A DNA stretch of 11,057 nucleotides, taken from the UHGV virus genome UHGV-0152719; one strand, 5' to 3'. This stretch comes from a virus. The translations under genes and the position numbers were made by a program. This document shows, piece by piece, positions 1-11,057 of this stretch. Below the pieces are notes generated by a model. The model saw only the letters and a program-made list of their open reading frames with translations, was not told the DNA's origin and made no database searches. Each line of letters starts with the position of its first letter. The first letter of the stretch is position 1.

Positions 1-88
1 GCATACATCGCCTTTATGAAAAGACAGGAAAAGATAAAATTTAAAAACAGTACATTACGAATGCTCAGACCTATCGTTTAAAGGAGTC

Positions 89-2454: not shown

Positions 2455-2796
2455 TTACACACGAGCCAGCGGCTGAACAGAAATACCTGAGCCAACAAAC
2501 GCGGCAACCTTTGCCGACAGTTCTTTTACAGACTCAGGCCAGTTCAGAGCATCAACATTTAAAACGCCTGTCTTATAAACCTGTGCCTGTGTTTTTTTCG
2601 CTGTGTCGATTTGTACAGCGGAAACATAAACCGCTTTACCTACGCTCGAACCATCCCATACCACCAGTGCACCTGTTGCATCTTCCTGCATCAGTGGCGT
2701 AAATGCAGGAATTACCCCTTTATTAGCTGAAAATATCCCCAGCGTAGTCACCAGTGCTTCAGTGCCAGCCATGAGTTCAGTGTAATGAGTAGCCAT
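2455..2796 (-). CDS. Head decoration protein, lambda gpD-like
   Basis: 113 aa; TPLMQEDATGALVVWDGSSVGKAV and NWPESVKELSAKVAAFVGSGISV parallel lambda gpD [24 protein letters not shown] and [33 protein letters not shown] Shine-Dalgarno before ATG at 2796. Confidence 0.8.
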   Translation of the reverse strand: MATHYTELMAGTEALVTTLGIFSANKGVIPAFTPLMQEDATGALVVWDGSSVGKAVYVSAVQIDTAKKTQAQVYKTGVLNVDALNWPESVKELSAKVAAFVGSGISVQPLARV

Positions 2797-2805
2797 TGCT
2801 CCCCC

Positions 2806-3852
2806 TTAGCCAATGCGAACGGTAACAAAACGATTGATGCGGGCCGGTATTGGCTGTGGTGCTGAATGTGTCTGCACATATTCAATAGCCGGATCACCAG
2901 GCACAATATAGTTTTTCGGTGCAAGTTCGGCTTTAGTCAGCCCCATTCGGATTAGCTCCGGATCCTGAATACCGCCATAGGCGACAATCCCCTGAAGAGC
3001 CGTATTGCCAAGCACCATCAAATCAGGATCAAGGAAATGTTTTTCAGTTCCGTCCTCGTCGGTATAACGCCCGCTGTATACAACAATCGCAACATCGCCC
3101 ATATACCCTTTAAAACTCACCGAATCACCAAGGTCTTTAAGAGCCGTTTCCAGTTCGGAATTAGAACCACGACGGGTATCCAGAGCCTCTTTTATCGCTC
3201 TGAATGAACGGTATTTCTTCCATACATTACCGCCCATAATGATGATATTAGTGACGCCCTCACTAAATTCTGCGTAGCTCTCAATATCATCATTTGGATC
3301 AAAAGTTTCTTTATCCTTACCTGACCACTCAGCACCGCCAGACTGAGTGATGATATTTTGTGGTTTAATATTCCAGTCCAGCTCATAACGTTCAATACCA
3401 TCGCCCTCAATGATATTTTTCCCCGTTGTGATTGCCTGAACGGCAAGCCATTCAATACGTGCACGAATAGCTTTAGCCTGATTTACAATCGCCTGTTTAA
3501 CTTTAATATTACGCGCTCCAAAAGCATTGTATTGCTCAGGTGATACACCAGCAGGGCGCACAGCTAACTTATTTGGATCAATGCTGCTTTTCGGCTTCAT
3601 ATAGCCTGGACGAATTGTTTTTGATTCGTACCCTTCGTCACGTGAAACTTTACTACCCACCATAGGAGAACAAAACGCTGCAATTGGGATATTTGGATCG
3701 TCGATTGTATCAAGAATAATATCGCGCGATTCAAACATTACCGAGCGAGTGAAAAACAAACTGGTAAACAACGCATTTAATTTTTTTTGCACATCTTCAG
3801 CATTAGCCACCTGCACAAGCTGTGTAGGCGAATATAAATCAACCATACTCAT
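2806..3852 (-). CDS. Major capsid protein, lambda gpE family
   Basis: Strong similarity to lambda gpE: NIITQSGGAEWSGKDKETFDPNDDIESYA ... RSFRAIKEALDTRRGSNSELETALKDLGDSVSFKGYMGDVAIVVYSGRY vs lambda NITQSGGTEWSKRDKSTYDPTDDIEAYA ... RSFKAVKEKLDTRRGSNSELETAVKDLGKAVSYKGMYGDVAIVVYSGQY. The ORF extends to 3933, but the MSMVDLY start (3852) matches the gpE N-terminus MSMYTT; the alternative ATG at 3846 has better SD spacing. Confidence 0.85.
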   Translation of the reverse strand: MSMVDLYSPTQLVQVANAEDVQKKLNALFTSLFFTRSVMFESRDIILDTIDDPNIPIAAFCSPMVGSKVSRDEGYESKTIRPGYMKPKSSIDPNKLAVRPAGVSPEQYNAFGARNIKVKQAIVNQAKAIRARIEWLAVQAITTGKNIIEGDGIERYELDWNIKPQNIITQSGGAEWSGKDKETFDPNDDIESYAEFSEGVTNIIIMGGNVWKKYRSFRAIKEALDTRRGSNSELETALKDLGDSVSFKGYMGDVAIVVYSGRYTDEDGTEKHFLDPDLMVLGNTALQGIVAYGGIQDPELIRMGLTKAELAPKNYIVPGDPAIEYVQTHSAPQPIPARINRFVTVRIG

Positions 3853-4063: not shown

Positions 4064-4486
4064 TTAAAACGGTATATTATCGCCGTACGGATCATCATTC
4101 CCCGACTGTTGTTTTGCCCTGTTCAGTGCGTCAGTGGCCTGCCCCTGCTGGCCTTTTTTGCCGCCCGGTCGCGCCGTTCGCGCACTGATTACGCTGTCTG
4201 CGATAACCTGCCAGCCCCGCCGCGTTTCGCCGTTCTGGCCTGTCCACTGGCTTACCTGCATGTTACCCGCCACGCTCACCAGTTCGCCTTTGTGGTGTTT
4301 TGCCAGTGCGTCGGCCTGTCTGCCAAACGCCAGGACGGATAACCACATCGTCGCCGTTCCGTCATCTGCCTGGCTGCACGGCAGGGGAACCGCCATACTC
4401 GCCATCGCCATTTGTGTCCCTTTGCTGGTGGTCTTTAACTGCGGGTCAGCCACCAGCCGCCCGTAAGCCGCTATCTGTGCTGTCAT
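4064..4486 (-). CDS. ssb: Single-stranded DNA-binding protein (SSB-like OB fold with acidic C-terminal IPF tip)
   Basis: WLSVLAFGRQADALAKHHKGELVSVAGNMQVSQWTGQNGETRRGWQVIADSV parallels E. coli SSB [52 protein letters not shown]; Gly/Gln-rich linker; C-terminus DDPYGDNIPF resembles the SSB DDDIPF tail. Start ATG overlaps the upstream gene's stop (ATGA). Confidence 0.7.
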   Translation of the reverse strand: MTAQIAAYGRLVADPQLKTTSKGTQMAMASMAVPLPCSQADDGTATMWLSVLAFGRQADALAKHHKGELVSVAGNMQVSQWTGQNGETRRGWQVIADSVISARTARPGGKKGQQGQATDALNRAKQQSGNDDPYGDNIPF

Positions 4487-5026: not shown

Positions 5027-6781
5027 TTATAAAAACGCGTCGCAATCCTCTGTTGTTGTCACATTGGTTTGCGTAAGTCCTTTAACCCTGCGCGTTATAT
5101 ATTCACATCCGTAAACTTTCGCCGCTGGCTTCATGGCCTTGCTGAAATCAGCCACGTTTAGCGGCTTGCTTCTGCCTGCGTATGCCATAAACGCCAGATA
5201 GACGCGGTAAAGGCTGTTTCTGGTCGTGTACTTCACGGAATCGCCACCGCCACCCATCATCAGGCCGCGCGCTTCCTCCAGAAAATTCAGAAACTGGCAA
5301 AACTCAATAACCGGATCCGTCTGTTGCTTTATCGCCAGTGCTTCTTCACCGTCGCGCTGTTCAATCAACAAATGTCGCGCCTTTTCTGGATCAGCAAAGT
5401 TTGCCAGCAATCTGCGGATAATCACGGGGATTTCAGCCGCGACCTTCTCCGGTAAATCCTTGTCCTTTTCTGCCTCGCTAACGATATTGTCGAAGCGGAA
5501 AATTACGCGACGACGTGACACACCTCCGGCCCGTTCGGTGAATATCATCGGGTTATTGTTGGTAGCCAGCACCACCGCCCTGATTACCGCCGTAAAACGC
5601 TTTTCATATTTCGGGTTTATTTCCACGGGGTCGCCGCCCGTGATTTTCTTGATGCCCGTGCCTTCGCCTGTATATTTCGGCTGGTCAGCCAGGACGATAA
5701 GACGACTCCCGACAACCTGAGCACGCCCACCAGCATCATCAAGCGAAGTCATTTCAGCGCTTACCGTGTTCTGTTTCCCTGCCAGAAGGCTGGCTATGTG
5801 CGTGAATGTACTCTTTCCGCTCCCGCCGTCTCCGGTGGCCTCAATAAACATCTGCCAGTCGTACCGGTTCGCCATAATCATGTACAGCGCGGCACATATA
5901 CGCATCATCTTGCGTGGGTCTTTTCCGGCTGCGTGATCAAGCCATTTATGAAAGTTTGGCGCGTTGTCGCGGATGTTCTCCCCTGGTGCTGGTGGCGTGT
6001 ACTCAATGCCGTTGTGCGTGGTGATCCAGTTCTCCGGCGAGTGCGGGGAAAATTCCCCCGTTTTCAGATTAAGCACACCATTAGTGAACGGTAGCAAATC
6101 GCCAGACGGCTCGCCCATTGGTTCGGCAATAACTTTTAACGCTTCCACGGCGTTATTGATTGCGCGCTTGCTGAAAGTGGCCCTGTGCTCTGAATAGATC
6201 GCCACCATTTCGCGGCTAAGTTCCATTGTGCTGACCGGACACCATACCCCGCCGCGCCATACGTGAACGATTTCACTTTCAGGATGTACGCAAACGCCAT
6301 CAAAGCGATCGGCAAGCAACTGCGCGCGCTCACTGTCCGCCATCTGCGAAAGTTGCGCCTTTTGCTTTACCGGAAGCTCAATGACCAGACCATCAGAAAG
6401 ATTCTGGCGTTCACGGGCCAGATATTCGCGCCAGTTCTGCACCTCCTGGCCGTGCATACCCTCAGGATAAAAATTTGCATCCTGTACGCCTGCTGCCGCC
6501 AGCTTCTGACCAATCGCCTTTATCATTACAGGCGCAAGATATCCGGCCCTGTATATGCGTGCTGATTTTCGGCCTTCCGGCACAATTTGCAGATTATCCA
6601 GTTCGGATAGCTGCTGCTCCCCAAGCCACACAGGAGGCTCATTATCTCCGGCCATACGCGCATCATGTTCCTGCCATTGTTTCGCGTGTGCCCAGGCATC
6701 ACTACCCGCAAAAATAATGACTTCTGTTCCTTTGTGTTTTATGCCGCGTGACTGCTGTTTTACGTTCGGTGCCAGTTTCAT
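5027..6781 (-). CDS. Primase-helicase, phage/plasmid P4-alpha-like (Walker A GDGGSGKS)
   Basis: 584-aa ORF; Walker A motif TGDGGSGKST followed by helicase-like region; N-terminal primase-like portion; typical P4/PICI pri-rep size and position next to iterons; start ATG overlaps upstream gene stop. Confidence 0.85.
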   Translation of the reverse strand: MKLAPNVKQQSRGIKHKGTEVIIFAGSDAWAHAKQWQEHDARMAGDNEPPVWLGEQQLSELDNLQIVPEGRKSARIYRAGYLAPVMIKAIGQKLAAAGVQDANFYPEGMHGQEVQNWREYLARERQNLSDGLVIELPVKQKAQLSQMADSERAQLLADRFDGVCVHPESEIVHVWRGGVWCPVSTMELSREMVAIYSEHRATFSKRAINNAVEALKVIAEPMGEPSGDLLPFTNGVLNLKTGEFSPHSPENWITTHNGIEYTPPAPGENIRDNAPNFHKWLDHAAGKDPRKMMRICAALYMIMANRYDWQMFIEATGDGGSGKSTFTHIASLLAGKQNTVSAEMTSLDDAGGRAQVVGSRLIVLADQPKYTGEGTGIKKITGGDPVEINPKYEKRFTAVIRAVVLATNNNPMIFTERAGGVSRRRVIFRFDNIVSEAEKDKDLPEKVAAEIPVIIRRLLANFADPEKARHLLIEQRDGEEALAIKQQTDPVIEFCQFLNFLEEARGLMMGGGGDSVKYTTRNSLYRVYLAFMAYAGRSKPLNVADFSKAMKPAAKVYGCEYITRRVKGLTQTNVTTTEDCDAFL

Positions 6782-7508: not shown

Positions 7509-7691
7509 TTACACCCCTTTTAATTCATGTACTGCTGCAATAATTACATGTGATAAACCTGCTTTACCGGAATTACTGATTAGTGAATCAATCGCCGCTT
7601 GCATATTAACGGCCTTCACGTTCTGCGTTATTCCGATGGTGTAGCCGCGTTTATTAACTGCACGGGCAAATACGCGGAAGGTTTTAAGCAT
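7509..7691 (-). CDS. Hypothetical protein (60 aa)
   Basis: ATG at 7691 overlaps the stop of the upstream 65-aa gene (ATGCTTAA); operon context. Confidence 0.45.
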   Translation of the reverse strand: MLKTFRVFARAVNKRGYTIGITQNVKAVNMQAAIDSLISNSGKAGLSHVIIAAVHELKGV

Positions 7692-8071: not shown

Positions 8072-8377
8072 ATGGCAACGGCTAACAAAAACGCAAAATC
8101 ACAACTGACAACTGTCAGAGTCCCACTAGATGTTATGCAAGGGATGGAATCCGTTAAGCTGGACGGTGAAAGCAATGCCGGATTTATCGTAACCGCCATG
8201 CGCGGAGAAATAGCCCGCCGCCAAGCAGAAGGCAGCGGAGAAAATCCCCTTGTGTCGTCACTGGATGCCCTGGCTAAGGTCGAACAAATCGGCATCAAAG
8301 CAGCCGAGGAGATCGGGCAACTCGTCACCGTCGCGCGTGAAGAACTCCAGCGACGCAAGGTCAAAGAGCATGAATAG
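8072..8377 (+). CDS. Putative ribbon-helix-helix-like DNA-binding protein (101 aa), candidate island regulator
   Basis: AGGAG SD 8 nt upstream of ATG; N-terminal TTVRVPLDVMQGMESVKLDGESNAGFIVTAMRGEIARRQ fits a beta-strand/helix/helix Arc/CopG-like pattern (inference only); divergent from the replication operon. Confidence 0.5.
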   Translation: MATANKNAKSQLTTVRVPLDVMQGMESVKLDGESNAGFIVTAMRGEIARRQAEGSGENPLVSSLDALAKVEQIGIKAAEEIGQLVTVAREELQRRKVKEHE

Positions 8378-8710: not shown

Positions 8711-9289
8711 TCACTGAATGCGGTTACCAAAGTAAAACTCAGGCTGATATTCACGTATCAGCCTTTTTTCTTCTTCCTCCAGCTCACGCTTTTTGCGCTT
8801 ACATGCCTGTAGCTCCCTCCCCTTCTCGCTGGCACTTATTTGATATTGCTCTTTACGGCGGGAAAAATCCTGTAATGCACCCCACGGGATACCATAAGCC
8901 CCCGTTTTTCTGATACCTGGTATCACATTTCTGAATACCCAGTTACTGAAACGATGAGCAAATGTGCCCGGCGTCGTTGCTTTGCGGCTGCGGGCTATTA
9001 GTTTGTAGAAACCTGACTCAGAGATAATTCTCATATTCTGATTTCCTCCTGGGGTGTAAGTTAAATTTACTCCCTTTTCATCATCATCAAGCATCTGCAA
9101 CGCCGTACGCGAATTGGTTAGTTCCAGCGCAGCACAAACATCTTTTGCAACAAACCACGGATCGCCGTTCAGATACACCACACGAACGTTCACACTATCA
9201 AAGCGCAGAACGACGAGATCACGAATATCGCAGAATTTTTTCACTGGACGAGCGTACCCCTTGCCCGTCACGGCAATATTTTTATTCAT
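8711..9289 (-). CDS. Bro-N domain protein (phage antirepressor-like), 192 aa
   Basis: N-terminal region VVLRFDSVNVRVVYLNGDPWFVAKDVCAALEL...LQMLDDDEKGV matches the Bro-N/antirepressor N-terminal domain pattern; C-terminal charged coiled-coil-like tail. Confidence 0.75.
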   Translation of the reverse strand: MNKNIAVTGKGYARPVKKFCDIRDLVVLRFDSVNVRVVYLNGDPWFVAKDVCAALELTNSRTALQMLDDDEKGVNLTYTPGGNQNMRIISESGFYKLIARSRKATTPGTFAHRFSNWVFRNVIPGIRKTGAYGIPWGALQDFSRRKEQYQISASEKGRELQACKRKKRELEEEEKRLIREYQPEFYFGNRIQ

Positions 9290-9345: not shown

Positions 9346-9603
9346 TTATTGCTGTTTTGTTTTTCCAGGTTTCCATCCAGGATGCCACTCACCACGGATC
9401 CATGCCTGAACCTCTGAAAGTCGATACCCTGCAGCACGTTCACCGATCTTGATACGTCGCGGGAATTTACCTGCCTGCTCCATTTTCCAGCGTGTTGAGT
9501 TTGCCAGCGTGGTAAGTGCTATGCACTCTTTTTCACGAATGAACCGATCAATGTCCTTCATTGTGCGCAAATCGTTTTCATCAACAAGAGAATAAATTGC
9601 CAT
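9346..9603 (-). CDS. alpA: AlpA-family transcriptional regulator / excisionase-like protein
   Basis: 85 aa with HTH IALTTLANSTRWKMEQAGKFPRRIKIGERAAGYRLSEVQAWI typical of AlpA (prophage CP4-57 regulatory protein family); AAGAGG SD; immediately downstream of the integrase. Confidence 0.8.
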   Translation of the reverse strand: MAIYSLVDENDLRTMKDIDRFIREKECIALTTLANSTRWKMEQAGKFPRRIKIGERAAGYRLSEVQAWIRGEWHPGWKPGKTKQQ

Positions 9604-9604
9604 A

Positions 9605-10846
9605 TCACACCACCTCTTTATTAAGCTCGATAACGTTGTTGTTAAATCCTGCTATCGTATTAAGGTAATTAACCCACATATTAAGCACCTCAAGTTTTTT
9701 CTTTATATGCCTGCTTTTATTGTAAACACCAGCAACCCCTTTCACTTTATGACCTAAAAGAAGTTCGACAATATAAGGATCCGCCCCCATATCATTAAGC
9801 GTAGTGGAAAATGTGCGCCTGAAATCATGTATGCACCACAAGCCATTAGTATCATGACCAAGACGCCTGCATATTCTGTTTGCAGCCCCTGTTATTGTCG
9901 CCCTTTGCAAAGCACAACCGACAACATAACCGCAATTTTTTGTTTCTGCGTAAAGATTAACGATCCATTGTTTTATTCCGTCAGGAACAGGCCTTACTAT
10001 AGCCTCCTTGTTTTTGCTGTGCTCTTTTGGGACTGTCCATACCCAGTTTTTTAAATCCCATTCGTCCCAGGTGGATAGCCTCGCCTCCTGCTGTCGGCAA
10101 CCAAACACCAGGCAGATAACCATTATTCTTCGGTTATATATTGATGACAGAGTTAGCAAATTATTACCGTAAGCATAAGACCATACATCAGCGGTTTCAT
10201 TGATATTAAGAACGCGATCCCTTATACCGGATGAGCGCCCGACATAACTTACGTTAATATCTCCAAAGGGATCGCACGCGATGTATTGCCTGACGCGACA
10301 AAAACGCAACGCCTGTTTGATATCAAGAAAAATTGCACCAGACATAACAGGCGCATTTTTTTTGATCCTGTCAAAGACGGTAAGCCATGTGTGTAATTTG
10401 CACTGTTCTATAGCCATATCACCGATATAGGGGAAGATATGCTTTTCAAATCGTTTTATTAAATATTCATGCTCTTTTCTGGCTGTTGTGGCGTGATTGT
10501 CGTACCAGTAAAACAGCGCATCCCTTACGGTCACTGGTTGCATAGTTTTTTCGGCAGCAAGTTTTATTTGCCTGCGGGGGTCCAGATTTTCAGCCAGCCA
10601 TTCACGGCACTGATCACGCATGCGCCTGGCCGTTGCAAGAGACATGTCAGGATAGCGACCAAGTGTAAGCCATACCGGAGGGGATTCCCTGCCACCAAGA
10701 CGATAGTAAAAAACAAAGCTGATCCCCCCAACCATGCTTACACGCACAGACAACCCGCGCCCATCCGCTATTGTTTTTTGTTTGTCCTGCCGTTTTCCGA
10801 CAAGACTCTTTAACAGTTTGTCACTGAGTTTGTTTTCAATAGCCAT
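9605..10846 (-). CDS. int: Tyrosine site-specific integrase, P4-type
   Basis: 413 aa; N-terminal P4-integrase-like arm-binding region (MAIENKLSDKLLKSL...GRGLSVRV); catalytic-domain motifs including HDFRRTFST and the GVAGVYNKS tyrosine region; GAGGG SD upstream. Confidence 0.9.
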   Translation of the reverse strand: MAIENKLSDKLLKSLVGKRQDKQKTIADGRGLSVRVSMVGGISFVFYYRLGGRESPPVWLTLGRYPDMSLATARRMRDQCREWLAENLDPRRQIKLAAEKTMQPVTVRDALFYWYDNHATTARKEHEYLIKRFEKHIFPYIGDMAIEQCKLHTWLTVFDRIKKNAPVMSGAIFLDIKQALRFCRVRQYIACDPFGDINVSYVGRSSGIRDRVLNINETADVWSYAYGNNLLTLSSIYNRRIMVICLVFGCRQQEARLSTWDEWDLKNWVWTVPKEHSKNKEAIVRPVPDGIKQWIVNLYAETKNCGYVVGCALQRATITGAANRICRRLGHDTNGLWCIHDFRRTFSTTLNDMGADPYIVELLLGHKVKGVAGVYNKSRHIKKKLEVLNMWVNYLNTIAGFNNNVIELNKEVV

Positions 10847-10918: not shown

Positions 10919-11057
10919 AAACCGCGAAAAACTGGAAAGGTGATGAACGGTCATCAAAAGCATGGAAAACGACATTCCAGACGCAGCAAGGGTTTCAGTG
11001 GAGTTGGCGAACGATGCGGGCAACTACGGTGAGATGATAGACATAAATCGCCTTCAC

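Follow-up and report, generated by a model that had tools for sequence, protein, structure and literature searches.

The virus genome UHGV-0152719, analyzed here over its full length of 11,057 nucleotides (the window), carries side by side two phage head genes, one encoding a major capsid protein of the lambda gpE family and the other a head decoration (cement) protein of the gpD/SHP family. Our results make it almost certain that this pair (E and D hereafter) belongs to the late zone of an E. coli phage satellite, a helper-embedded phage-inducible chromosomal island (HE-PICI) of the Gram-negative type, which apparently integrates co-oriented into the portal gene of a lambda-like prophage, and that the two genes represent an old E/D lineage, so far met in satellites only and always as E followed by D, which moves as a module between phage-inducible chromosomal islands (PICIs) differing in integrase and in packaging device.

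The product of the capsid gene matched the Pfam profile PF03864 (Phage_cap_E) with an E-value of 5e-41 (141 bits, against a cut-off of 22.9) along positions 4-327 of the 329 in the profile, and PHROG 29 ("major head protein") with an E-value of 1.5e-88. A phmmer search of the Protein Data Bank (PDB) recovered 3BQW (1e-121) and lambda gpE (7VI9; 4e-77), and an AlphaFold model made with 57 homologs (predicted local distance difference test, pLDDT, 79) superimposed on 3BQW with a template modeling (TM) score of 0.90 and on lambda gpE with scores of 0.83-0.88, so that both profile and fold place the protein in the lambda gpE family, with its HK97 fold. In the same way, the product of the decoration gene matched the Pfam profile PF02924 (HDPD; 4e-15, 56 bits, cut-off 29), PHROG 49 ("head decoration"; 6e-26), and, among PDB entries, the SHP protein of phage 21 (1TD0; 4e-16) and lambda gpD (8e-12), its AlphaFold model (pLDDT 80) giving TM scores of 0.82-0.91 to SHP and gpD; profile and fold thus concur on the gpD/SHP family. 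The scores of both proteins lie far beyond chance. An initial annotation, made from the letters of the window alone, had assigned the two proteins to the lambda E/D family, and the Pfam, PHROG and PDB matches agree with it, with homology searches placing both open reading frames (ORFs) in the E/D families rather than in unrelated ones and the predicted structures superimposing on gpE/3BQW and on SHP/gpD. The absence of portal, protease and scaffold genes that it had also reported was confirmed as well, as none of these families was detected among the other ORFs of the window scanned with Pfam, nor among the ten ORFs scanned with PHROGs.

The decoration ORF (113 aa) starts 9 nt past the stop codon of the capsid gene, its ribosome-binding site (RBS; GGGGGA) follows that stop directly, and each of the two genes has a Shine-Dalgarno-like sequence upstream. 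The start codon of the capsid gene is ambiguous by two codons: translation from the ATG at 3852 yields a protein of 348 aa with a lambda-like "MSM" N-terminus, and translation from the ATG at 3846 yields one of 346 aa, this second start being the one annotated by RefSeq in near-identical copies and having the better spaced RBS (AAGAGG, 6 nt upstream). An AT-rich gap of about 210 nt separates the capsid gene from the gene for the single-stranded DNA-binding protein (SSB), and a search for a promoter or terminator proper to the pair gave one weak sigma-70-like site (3914-3887), with counts at or below those expected from shuffled sequences. Two database proteins, P0005 (463 aa) and P0077 (470 aa), join Phage_cap_E and HDPD in one chain; one of them is 84% and the other 42% identical to the window E, both come from short contigs, and they may be either assembly or frameshift artifacts or real read-through fusions.

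Divergence from the lambda-type proteins is uneven along E, with 15-40% identity over residues 1-160 and 60-85% over residues 160-280. Homology to the HK97 fold leads one to expect the N-arm and the E-loop in the N-terminal region, and it is at the E-loop that lambda gpD docks; residues 56-74 of our model, the segment that we read as the E-loop, are predicted with low confidence. Residues ~210-260 are closer to lambda than to the PICI of E. coli CFT073 described below. A recent recombination with a helper in this middle part of E was considered and rejected, the nucleotide identity there being just 73.5%. As a separate observation, Y313 of the window E (codon at about 2908-2910) aligns with W308 of lambda gpE, a residue for which the structure of the W308A mutant is available (PDB 7SJ5). 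This position is Tyr in all nine sequences of the window sub-clade, Trp in all 21 lambda-type sequences, and Trp in 18 of 27 PICI sequences at intermediate distance.

The island measures about 11.04 kb between two imperfect 13-bp att repeats that mark its ends and carries a cos site, in agreement with the cos-packaged element of about 11 kb that had been supposed at the outset. The window itself holds only the island and its att cores, the embedding in a portal gene being read from near-identical copies. In locus L001, which has the closest E. coli copy examined (95.5% identity across 93% of the window), the portal gene of a lambdoid prophage is broken by the island into two annotated pseudogene halves (L001 3235-4017 and 14829-15662), the island and the late operon of this prophage have the same orientation, and the ends of the window are the same junction sequences (window 1-17 and 11042-11057). 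The two halves jointly encode about 539 aa, and lambda gpB has 533 aa. A satellite of Edwardsiella tarda that likewise interrupts a portal gene has an integrase 88% identical to the one in the window. Taken as pairwise identities and not as a tree, the window integrase shares 54% with the integrase of Eco567.11capE (11capE; strain NRG 857C), the founding example of the HE-PICIs (PMC10111431), and 25% with that of a PICI located beside tRNA-Pro, which puts it on the side of the HE-PICI integrases. The portal-gene junctions of L001 and these integrase identities together argue that the window element is an HE-PICI of the portal-site kind, an already described variant, as HE-PICI insertion sites have been reported in the lambda genes A, B, C and E (PMC10111431).

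The gene content agrees with this identity. All the convincing genes of the window lie on the minus strand, and the window shows the traits by which Gram-negative PICIs are recognized from sequence (int, alpA and pri, genes mostly in one direction, a size of 10-20 kb, att repeats at the ends, and neither lysis nor tail genes; Fillol-Salom et al. 2018). Its int, alpA, Bro-N, pri and SSB genes and its late zone follow the Integration/Bro/Replication/Late layout described for these elements (PMC10111431). No tail or lysis families were detected in the scanned ORFs of the window with Pfam or PHROGs.

The presence of a capsid/decoration pair in PICIs is already known, including the crystal structure of a homolog. 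In EcCICFT073, the model E. coli PICI, the genes c1499 (capsid) and c1500 (decoration) have been described, and deleting either of them left transfer by the resident prophages and interference with lambda unchanged, all the DNA recovered from particles being phage-sized (Fillol-Salom et al. 2018, PMC6092414). The crystallized chain 3BQW, entitled "putative capsid protein of prophage (E. coli CFT073)", is the capsid protein of this very element (6e-241, 351 of 351 residues), and the identity between the window and CFT073 proteins is 55% for E and 54% for D. Moreover, no other phage late gene is as common in Gram-negative PICIs as the capsid gene, which is found in 21 of 29 reference elements and is not required for transfer (PMC10111431); what had been presented as notable in the initial annotation is thus a published and recurrent feature of these satellites. 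No functional follow-up on the capsid and decoration genes of PICIs was found in the literature beyond the 2018 and 2023 papers.

EcCICFT073 resembles the window element in overall PICI layout and size and in the placement of the pair, which in both follows SSB, runs from E to D, and precedes the packaging genes and a conserved ORF of 93-94 aa. It belongs, on the other hand, to another sub-lineage (~66% nucleotide identity), has Rpp and a lambda-type cosN where the window has a Nu1-like small terminase subunit (TerS) and a variant cosN, and sits in the chromosome between roxA and phoQ and not, like near-identical copies of the window island, inside a prophage portal gene. 11capE is closer: its E-D segment is 98.7% identical in nucleotides, it shares the four-zone layout and the integrase clade, and like the window type it resides in a lambdoid late gene, in the same orientation as that gene. 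However, it splits the helper capsid gene E, lacks terS and has a helper-like cosB, whereas islands of the window type interrupt the portal gene B and bring a TerS and a cosB of their own. With lambda gpE/gpD and phage 21 SHP the pair shares Pfam families and folds, but compared to lambda the identity is just 42% (E) and 38-39% (D), the order is E-D and not D-E, and there is no adjacent portal, protease/scaffold or FI gene.

Two other satellite systems with capsid genes were also compared. SaPIbov5 is, like the window element, a cos-packaged satellite with a homolog of the helper capsid protein (Ccm) and without the rest of the head module; unlike it, Ccm belongs to another capsid family and another host, has been shown to redirect head size and to interfere with the helper, and has no partner decoration gene. 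Capsid-forming PICIs (cf-PICIs) such as EcCIEDL933 share the int, alpA and pri backbone and a capsid gene of their own, but they also encode a protease, a portal, head-tail connectors, an HNH protein and the large terminase subunit (TerL), and build their own small heads. None of these further genes is present in the window, and portal, maturation protease, connector and TerL families were absent from its scanned ORFs (Pfam and PHROGs), which sets the element apart from the cf-PICIs.

Besides the window, twelve contexts of the pair were examined (L001-L005, L007, L009-L013 and the Logan contig L006), which comprise five named genera and metagenome contigs. All twelve are satellites of the int/alpA/primase type in which D comes right after E, no full phage head module is among them, and both ORFs are intact in the window and in each of them, whereas the prophages around these satellites, where present, have D then E. 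The departure from the lambda gene order that had been pointed out earlier holds in all twelve. The accompanying view that the element is no mere prophage fragment was upheld too, as the window E and D share just 42% and 38% amino acid identity with their counterparts in the prophage around the near-identical island copy, and among 50,697 phage records the maximum identity was 41.8% for E and 41.1% for D. As no phage copy exceeds 42% identity, the pair was not captured recently from a helper. Relatives of E in a set of 5.8 billion proteins fall into two groups, one with 50-99% identity, from Escherichia, Cedecea, Scandinavium, Serratia, Edwardsiella, Salmonella and Lelliottia, and the other, lambda-type, with 44% or less; relatives of D group alike. 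These comparisons suggest that the pair is an old E/D lineage, forming a separate clade with a fixed non-phage order and so far seen only in satellites, and this is what the present analysis adds.

Window and 11capE have E-D segments that are 98.7% identical but integrases that share just 54%, and the module is also found with unrelated integrases, which points to the pair being a mobile module among PICIs. The window type was found in 395 of 5,426 complete E. coli genomes (~7%) and the CFT073 type in 598 (~11%). The lineage is not confined to helper-embedded islands, as some PICIs that carry it reside at ordinary sites of the chromosome, next to tRNA-Pro/yejM, next to fis, and between roxA and phoQ. 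In the loci examined, the islands with the module measure 10.3-11.6 kb.

Both genes are under strong purifying selection. With respect to the 82%-identical L003 copy, the ratio of nonsynonymous to synonymous substitution rates (dN/dS) was 0.086 for E (dS 1.29) and 0.084 for D (dS 0.24), and with respect to a CFT073-type copy it was about 0.2, with dS saturated.

In two relatives of the clade, a third head gene directly follows D (L009 11409-12752, in a Lelliottia island beside fis, and L012 6252-7544, in a metagenome contig where the satellite adjoins a truncated terminase gene A). In L009 this gene encodes a gpC-like S49 protease that is 50% identical to a prophage gpC along almost the entire protein, C-terminal part included; in lambda gpC, this part contains the Nu3 scaffold. 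The resulting E-D-C order in both loci is the reverse of the C-D-E of lambda, in the same orientation.

The order previously proposed for the late zone of the window, with E and then D upstream of cos and terS, was confirmed (Table 1). In a 77-bp alignment, the cos region is 86% identical to cosQ/cosN of the prophage in which the L001 island resides, and the degenerate pattern of the cos core is unique in the window, with 0 occurrences expected by chance. A search for exact or near-exact copies of the lambda cosN 12-mer gave a lone match, inside the primase gene, which was rejected as a chance one. The window cosN 12-mer, GGGCGGAAGGCG, differs from the lambda-type GGGCGGCGACCT at 5 of 12 positions; the lambda type is kept by the host prophage, by EcCICFT073, by the PICI of strain ATCC 25922, and by the 95%-identical L001 island, and 11capE has a third variant, GGGCGTCAGGCG. 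If such variants were cut weakly, this might favor the skipping of cos sites and the packaging of multimers.

The DNA downstream of the window cosN, at the position of cosB in lambda, is unrelated to that of the helper and common to other TerS-bearing PICIs, and the window TerS is 36% identical, over its full length, to Nu1/NohD of the host prophage. Neither the TerS-like protein nor the 94-aa protein encoded at the end of the late zone had a significant match in the PDB, which holds Rpp structures, and the TerS-like protein showed no similarity to Rpp of CFT073, so the window island uses TerS and not Rpp. We infer that the satellite TerS recognizes the satellite cosB and recruits the large terminase of the helper. 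One E-D module is thus found with three packaging devices: its own TerS with its own cosB (window, L001 and L004), Rpp (EcCICFT073), and no TerS with a helper-like cosB (11capE). The Rpp of EcCICFT073 (L010 7978-8412), a member of the 6HLK family (5e-31), fills the slot of the window TerS.

Table 1. Features of the UHGV-0152719 element, listed in transcription order except for the att repeats; positions are those of the window.
Feature	Position	Strand	Evidence and remarks
Integrase gene	9605-10846	minus	Pfam; integration zone of the PICI
AlpA gene	9346-9603	minus	Pfam; integration zone
Bro-N protein gene	8711-9289	minus	Pfam
Several small ORFs	between Bro-N and primase genes	minus	
Primase/helicase gene (D5_N, DUF5906)	5027-6781	minus	Pfam; PICI replication gene
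85-aa ORF	between primase and SSB genes	minus	
SSB gene	4064-4486	minus	Pfam SSB 5.5e-16; replication zone; upstream neighbor of the capsid gene
Major capsid gene, lambda gpE family	2806-3852	minus	Pfam, PHROG, PDB match, AlphaFold model
Head decoration (cement) gene, gpD/SHP family	2455-2796	minus	Pfam, PHROG, PDB match, AlphaFold model
Second AlpA-like helix-turn-helix gene	2060-2443	minus	Pfam Phage_AlpA 1.3e-8; PHROG 2790 2.4e-48
cos site	1959-2035	minus	cosQ and cosN-like core (1979-2004); immediately upstream of terS
Nu1-like terS	1316-1870	minus	Pfam Phage_Nu1 9.6e-24; PHROG 57 1.3e-50
94-aa ORF	1020-1304	minus	PHROG 1561 1.8e-49; conserved, no assigned function, end of late zone
att core repeat CATACATCGCCTT	2-14	none	partner CATAAATCGCCTT at 11042-11054

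Among the remaining genes of the window, the second AlpA-like gene is located directly downstream of the decoration gene, within the conserved late zone, and the same slot is filled by a helix-turn-helix or AlpA-family gene in L001, L002, L003, L005 and L013. The 94-aa ORF is 74% identical to its EcCICFT073 equivalent, and the primase gene is annotated as "DNA primase family protein" in all the related E. coli loci. In near-identical copies, two further genes are annotated at positions corresponding to window 8072-8377 (plus strand; YlcI/YnfO family protein, the sole plus-strand gene there) and 7509-7691 (minus strand; Icd-like cell-division inhibitor), and Pfam gave no match for either in the window. 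The downstream end of the window (positions 1-1020, ~1 kb) has no convincing ORF, Pfam being empty for the two longest ones (340-1056 and 464-802); this region has patchy matches only in E. coli genomes, and 80% of it is found in no genome. Rfam (at gathering thresholds) and tRNA scans of the window were also empty, including for immunity RNAs of the C4/isrK type, which have been reported for some PICIs.

As to what the pair does, we tentatively favor a reading that we place a little short of an even chance, in which E and D would supply working shell and cement subunits to lambda-sized heads nucleated by the helper, as a supplement or a substitute, with no redirection of head size. Both genes would be expressed late, giving an HK97-fold shell subunit and a matched trimeric cement protein; these subunits would enter heads nucleated and matured by the portal, scaffold and protease of the helper and filled by its TerL, which the satellite TerS would steer to the satellite cos. 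Purifying selection implies that the proteins are used, and their folds imply use as shell and cement proteins. Each lambda-sized head would hold some four satellite genomes as one concatemer; at 11.04 kb per copy, four of them amount to 44.2 kb, or 91% of the length of lambda. Lambda packages 78-105% of its genome length and its heads need gpD once the DNA exceeds about 82% of full length, so the four-copy arithmetic fits, falling within the packaging limits and above the gpD threshold. The need for multimers in a lambda-sized head had been raised as a problem in the initial annotation, and yet exactly this was observed for EcCICFT073, an island that is carried as concatemers of phage length in full-sized heads. 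The satellite would carry its own cement protein because its shell subunit is most diverged in the N-terminal third, including the modeled E-loop region. Such a spare supply would make the satellite less dependent on the E/D alleles of the helper or on their expression, and it would explain why laboratory tests with lambda, phi80 and the native CFT073 helper showed no need for the pair. Taken as a whole, identity and mechanism together, this is the best explanation that we can offer, and we consider it evenly balanced between right and wrong.

Several points weigh against a supply of subunits to helper heads. The sole genetic tests, carried out on homologs 55% and 54% identical to the window pair, gave no phenotype. 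The 42% identity between satellite and helper E brings into question the use of the helper scaffold and portal as well as mixing in the lattice. The five differences in the 12-mer of cosN from the lambda type of the closest relative might make the window copy package poorly, and purifying selection shows that E and D matter without saying what for. A further difficulty comes from L013 (4292-11812), a Salmonella satellite with lambda-type E-D that lies within the tail gene cluster of a P2-like prophage, where it separates the tail fiber from the tail tube genes. This prophage has an unrelated capsid system, in which a lambda-type spare part would be useless if it were the helper; either the P2-like prophage is not the helper, or satellite E/D act without a lambda-type head.

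An unlikely alternative is that the satellite-only E/D form a working shell kit with natural lambdoid helpers, giving satellite-specific or chimeric heads, possibly of lower triangulation number (T), on the helper portal and scaffold. Quite unlikely, in our judgment, is the proposal made by the authors of the HE-PICI study that, as these elements interrupt head genes (A, B, C and E), late genes captured near the integration site replace or buffer, until excision, helper functions that are interrupted or come late (PMC10111431). The near-identical E-D pair of 11capE, which interrupts the helper E, and the additional head genes of relatives, with E-D and a gpC-like protease in L009 and L012, speak for it. 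However, the same lineage occurs at the chromosomal sites mentioned above (tRNA-Pro/yejM, fis and roxA-phoQ), where no helper gene is interrupted; the gene interrupted by the window type is that of the portal, for which E and D are no substitute; and the identity of at most 42% to any phage copy excludes a recent helper capture.

Redirection of head size in the manner of Ccm appears improbable. According to this explanation, the capsid protein of the satellite would take the place of part of the helper subunits (for instance, the pentamers) or build the whole shell on the helper portal, giving small heads with room for one or two 11-kb genomes but not for the 45-50 kb of the helper. There are precedents for it in SaPIbov5, whose Ccm turns the prolate heads of its helper into small isometric T=4 ones (PMC6893505, PMC8569155), and in PmCI172, which has a capsid homolog and makes small heads. 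For islands of 10.3-11.6 kb, scaling lambda capacity by T^1.5 fits one copy at T=3 and two at T=4; nevertheless, the same size range fits four copies at T=7 equally well, so island size does not discriminate among the three. No gene for an external or internal size-determining scaffold was found in the window ORFs scanned with Pfam and PHROGs. For the homologous EcCICFT073 pair, the smaller shells that had been suggested in the initial annotation are contradicted by experiment (PMC6092414), as all the DNA from particles was phage-sized and deletion of c1499 or c1500 neither changed transfer nor relieved interference.

The deletion results bear less on interference, to which we assign equally poor prospects, in which satellite E and/or D would act as poison subunits in helper assembly, or would sequester its scaffold or portal, and lower the phage yield. 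Interference with the helper is a general trait of PICIs, the N-terminal third is where satellite and helper E are least alike, and the published single deletions, which did not restore lambda plaques, are not decisive, as Rpp blocks lambda packaging by itself and any second mechanism would be hidden. Yet a pure poison would need neither a matched decoration protein under equally strong purifying selection nor the preservation of the whole fold (TM 0.83-0.88 to gpE). Finally, the view that the pair is a relic of a head module captured from a prophage, decaying or without function, is hardly credible, as the absence of phenotype in the EcCICFT073 deletions speaks for it but is set against the selection analysis, which contradicts it (dN/dS ~0.08, with synonymous sites near saturation), the intact ORFs in all the loci examined, the conservation of the pair at 50-99% identity over several enterobacterial genera, and its presence in hundreds of complete E. 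coli genomes, in numbers given above for both types.

The value of the finding lies in a confirmed annotation and in the recognition of an apparently old, satellite-only lineage with a fixed non-phage gene order. That PICIs carry E and D under strong selection, while knock-outs have no phenotype, is a real, if small, question in satellite biology. Were the pair a shell kit that works with natural lambdoid helpers, the null phenotypes of EcCICFT073 would reflect redundancy with the helper E/D and the choice of laboratory helpers, and these islands would represent an evolutionary half-way stage between classical PICIs and capsid-forming ones.

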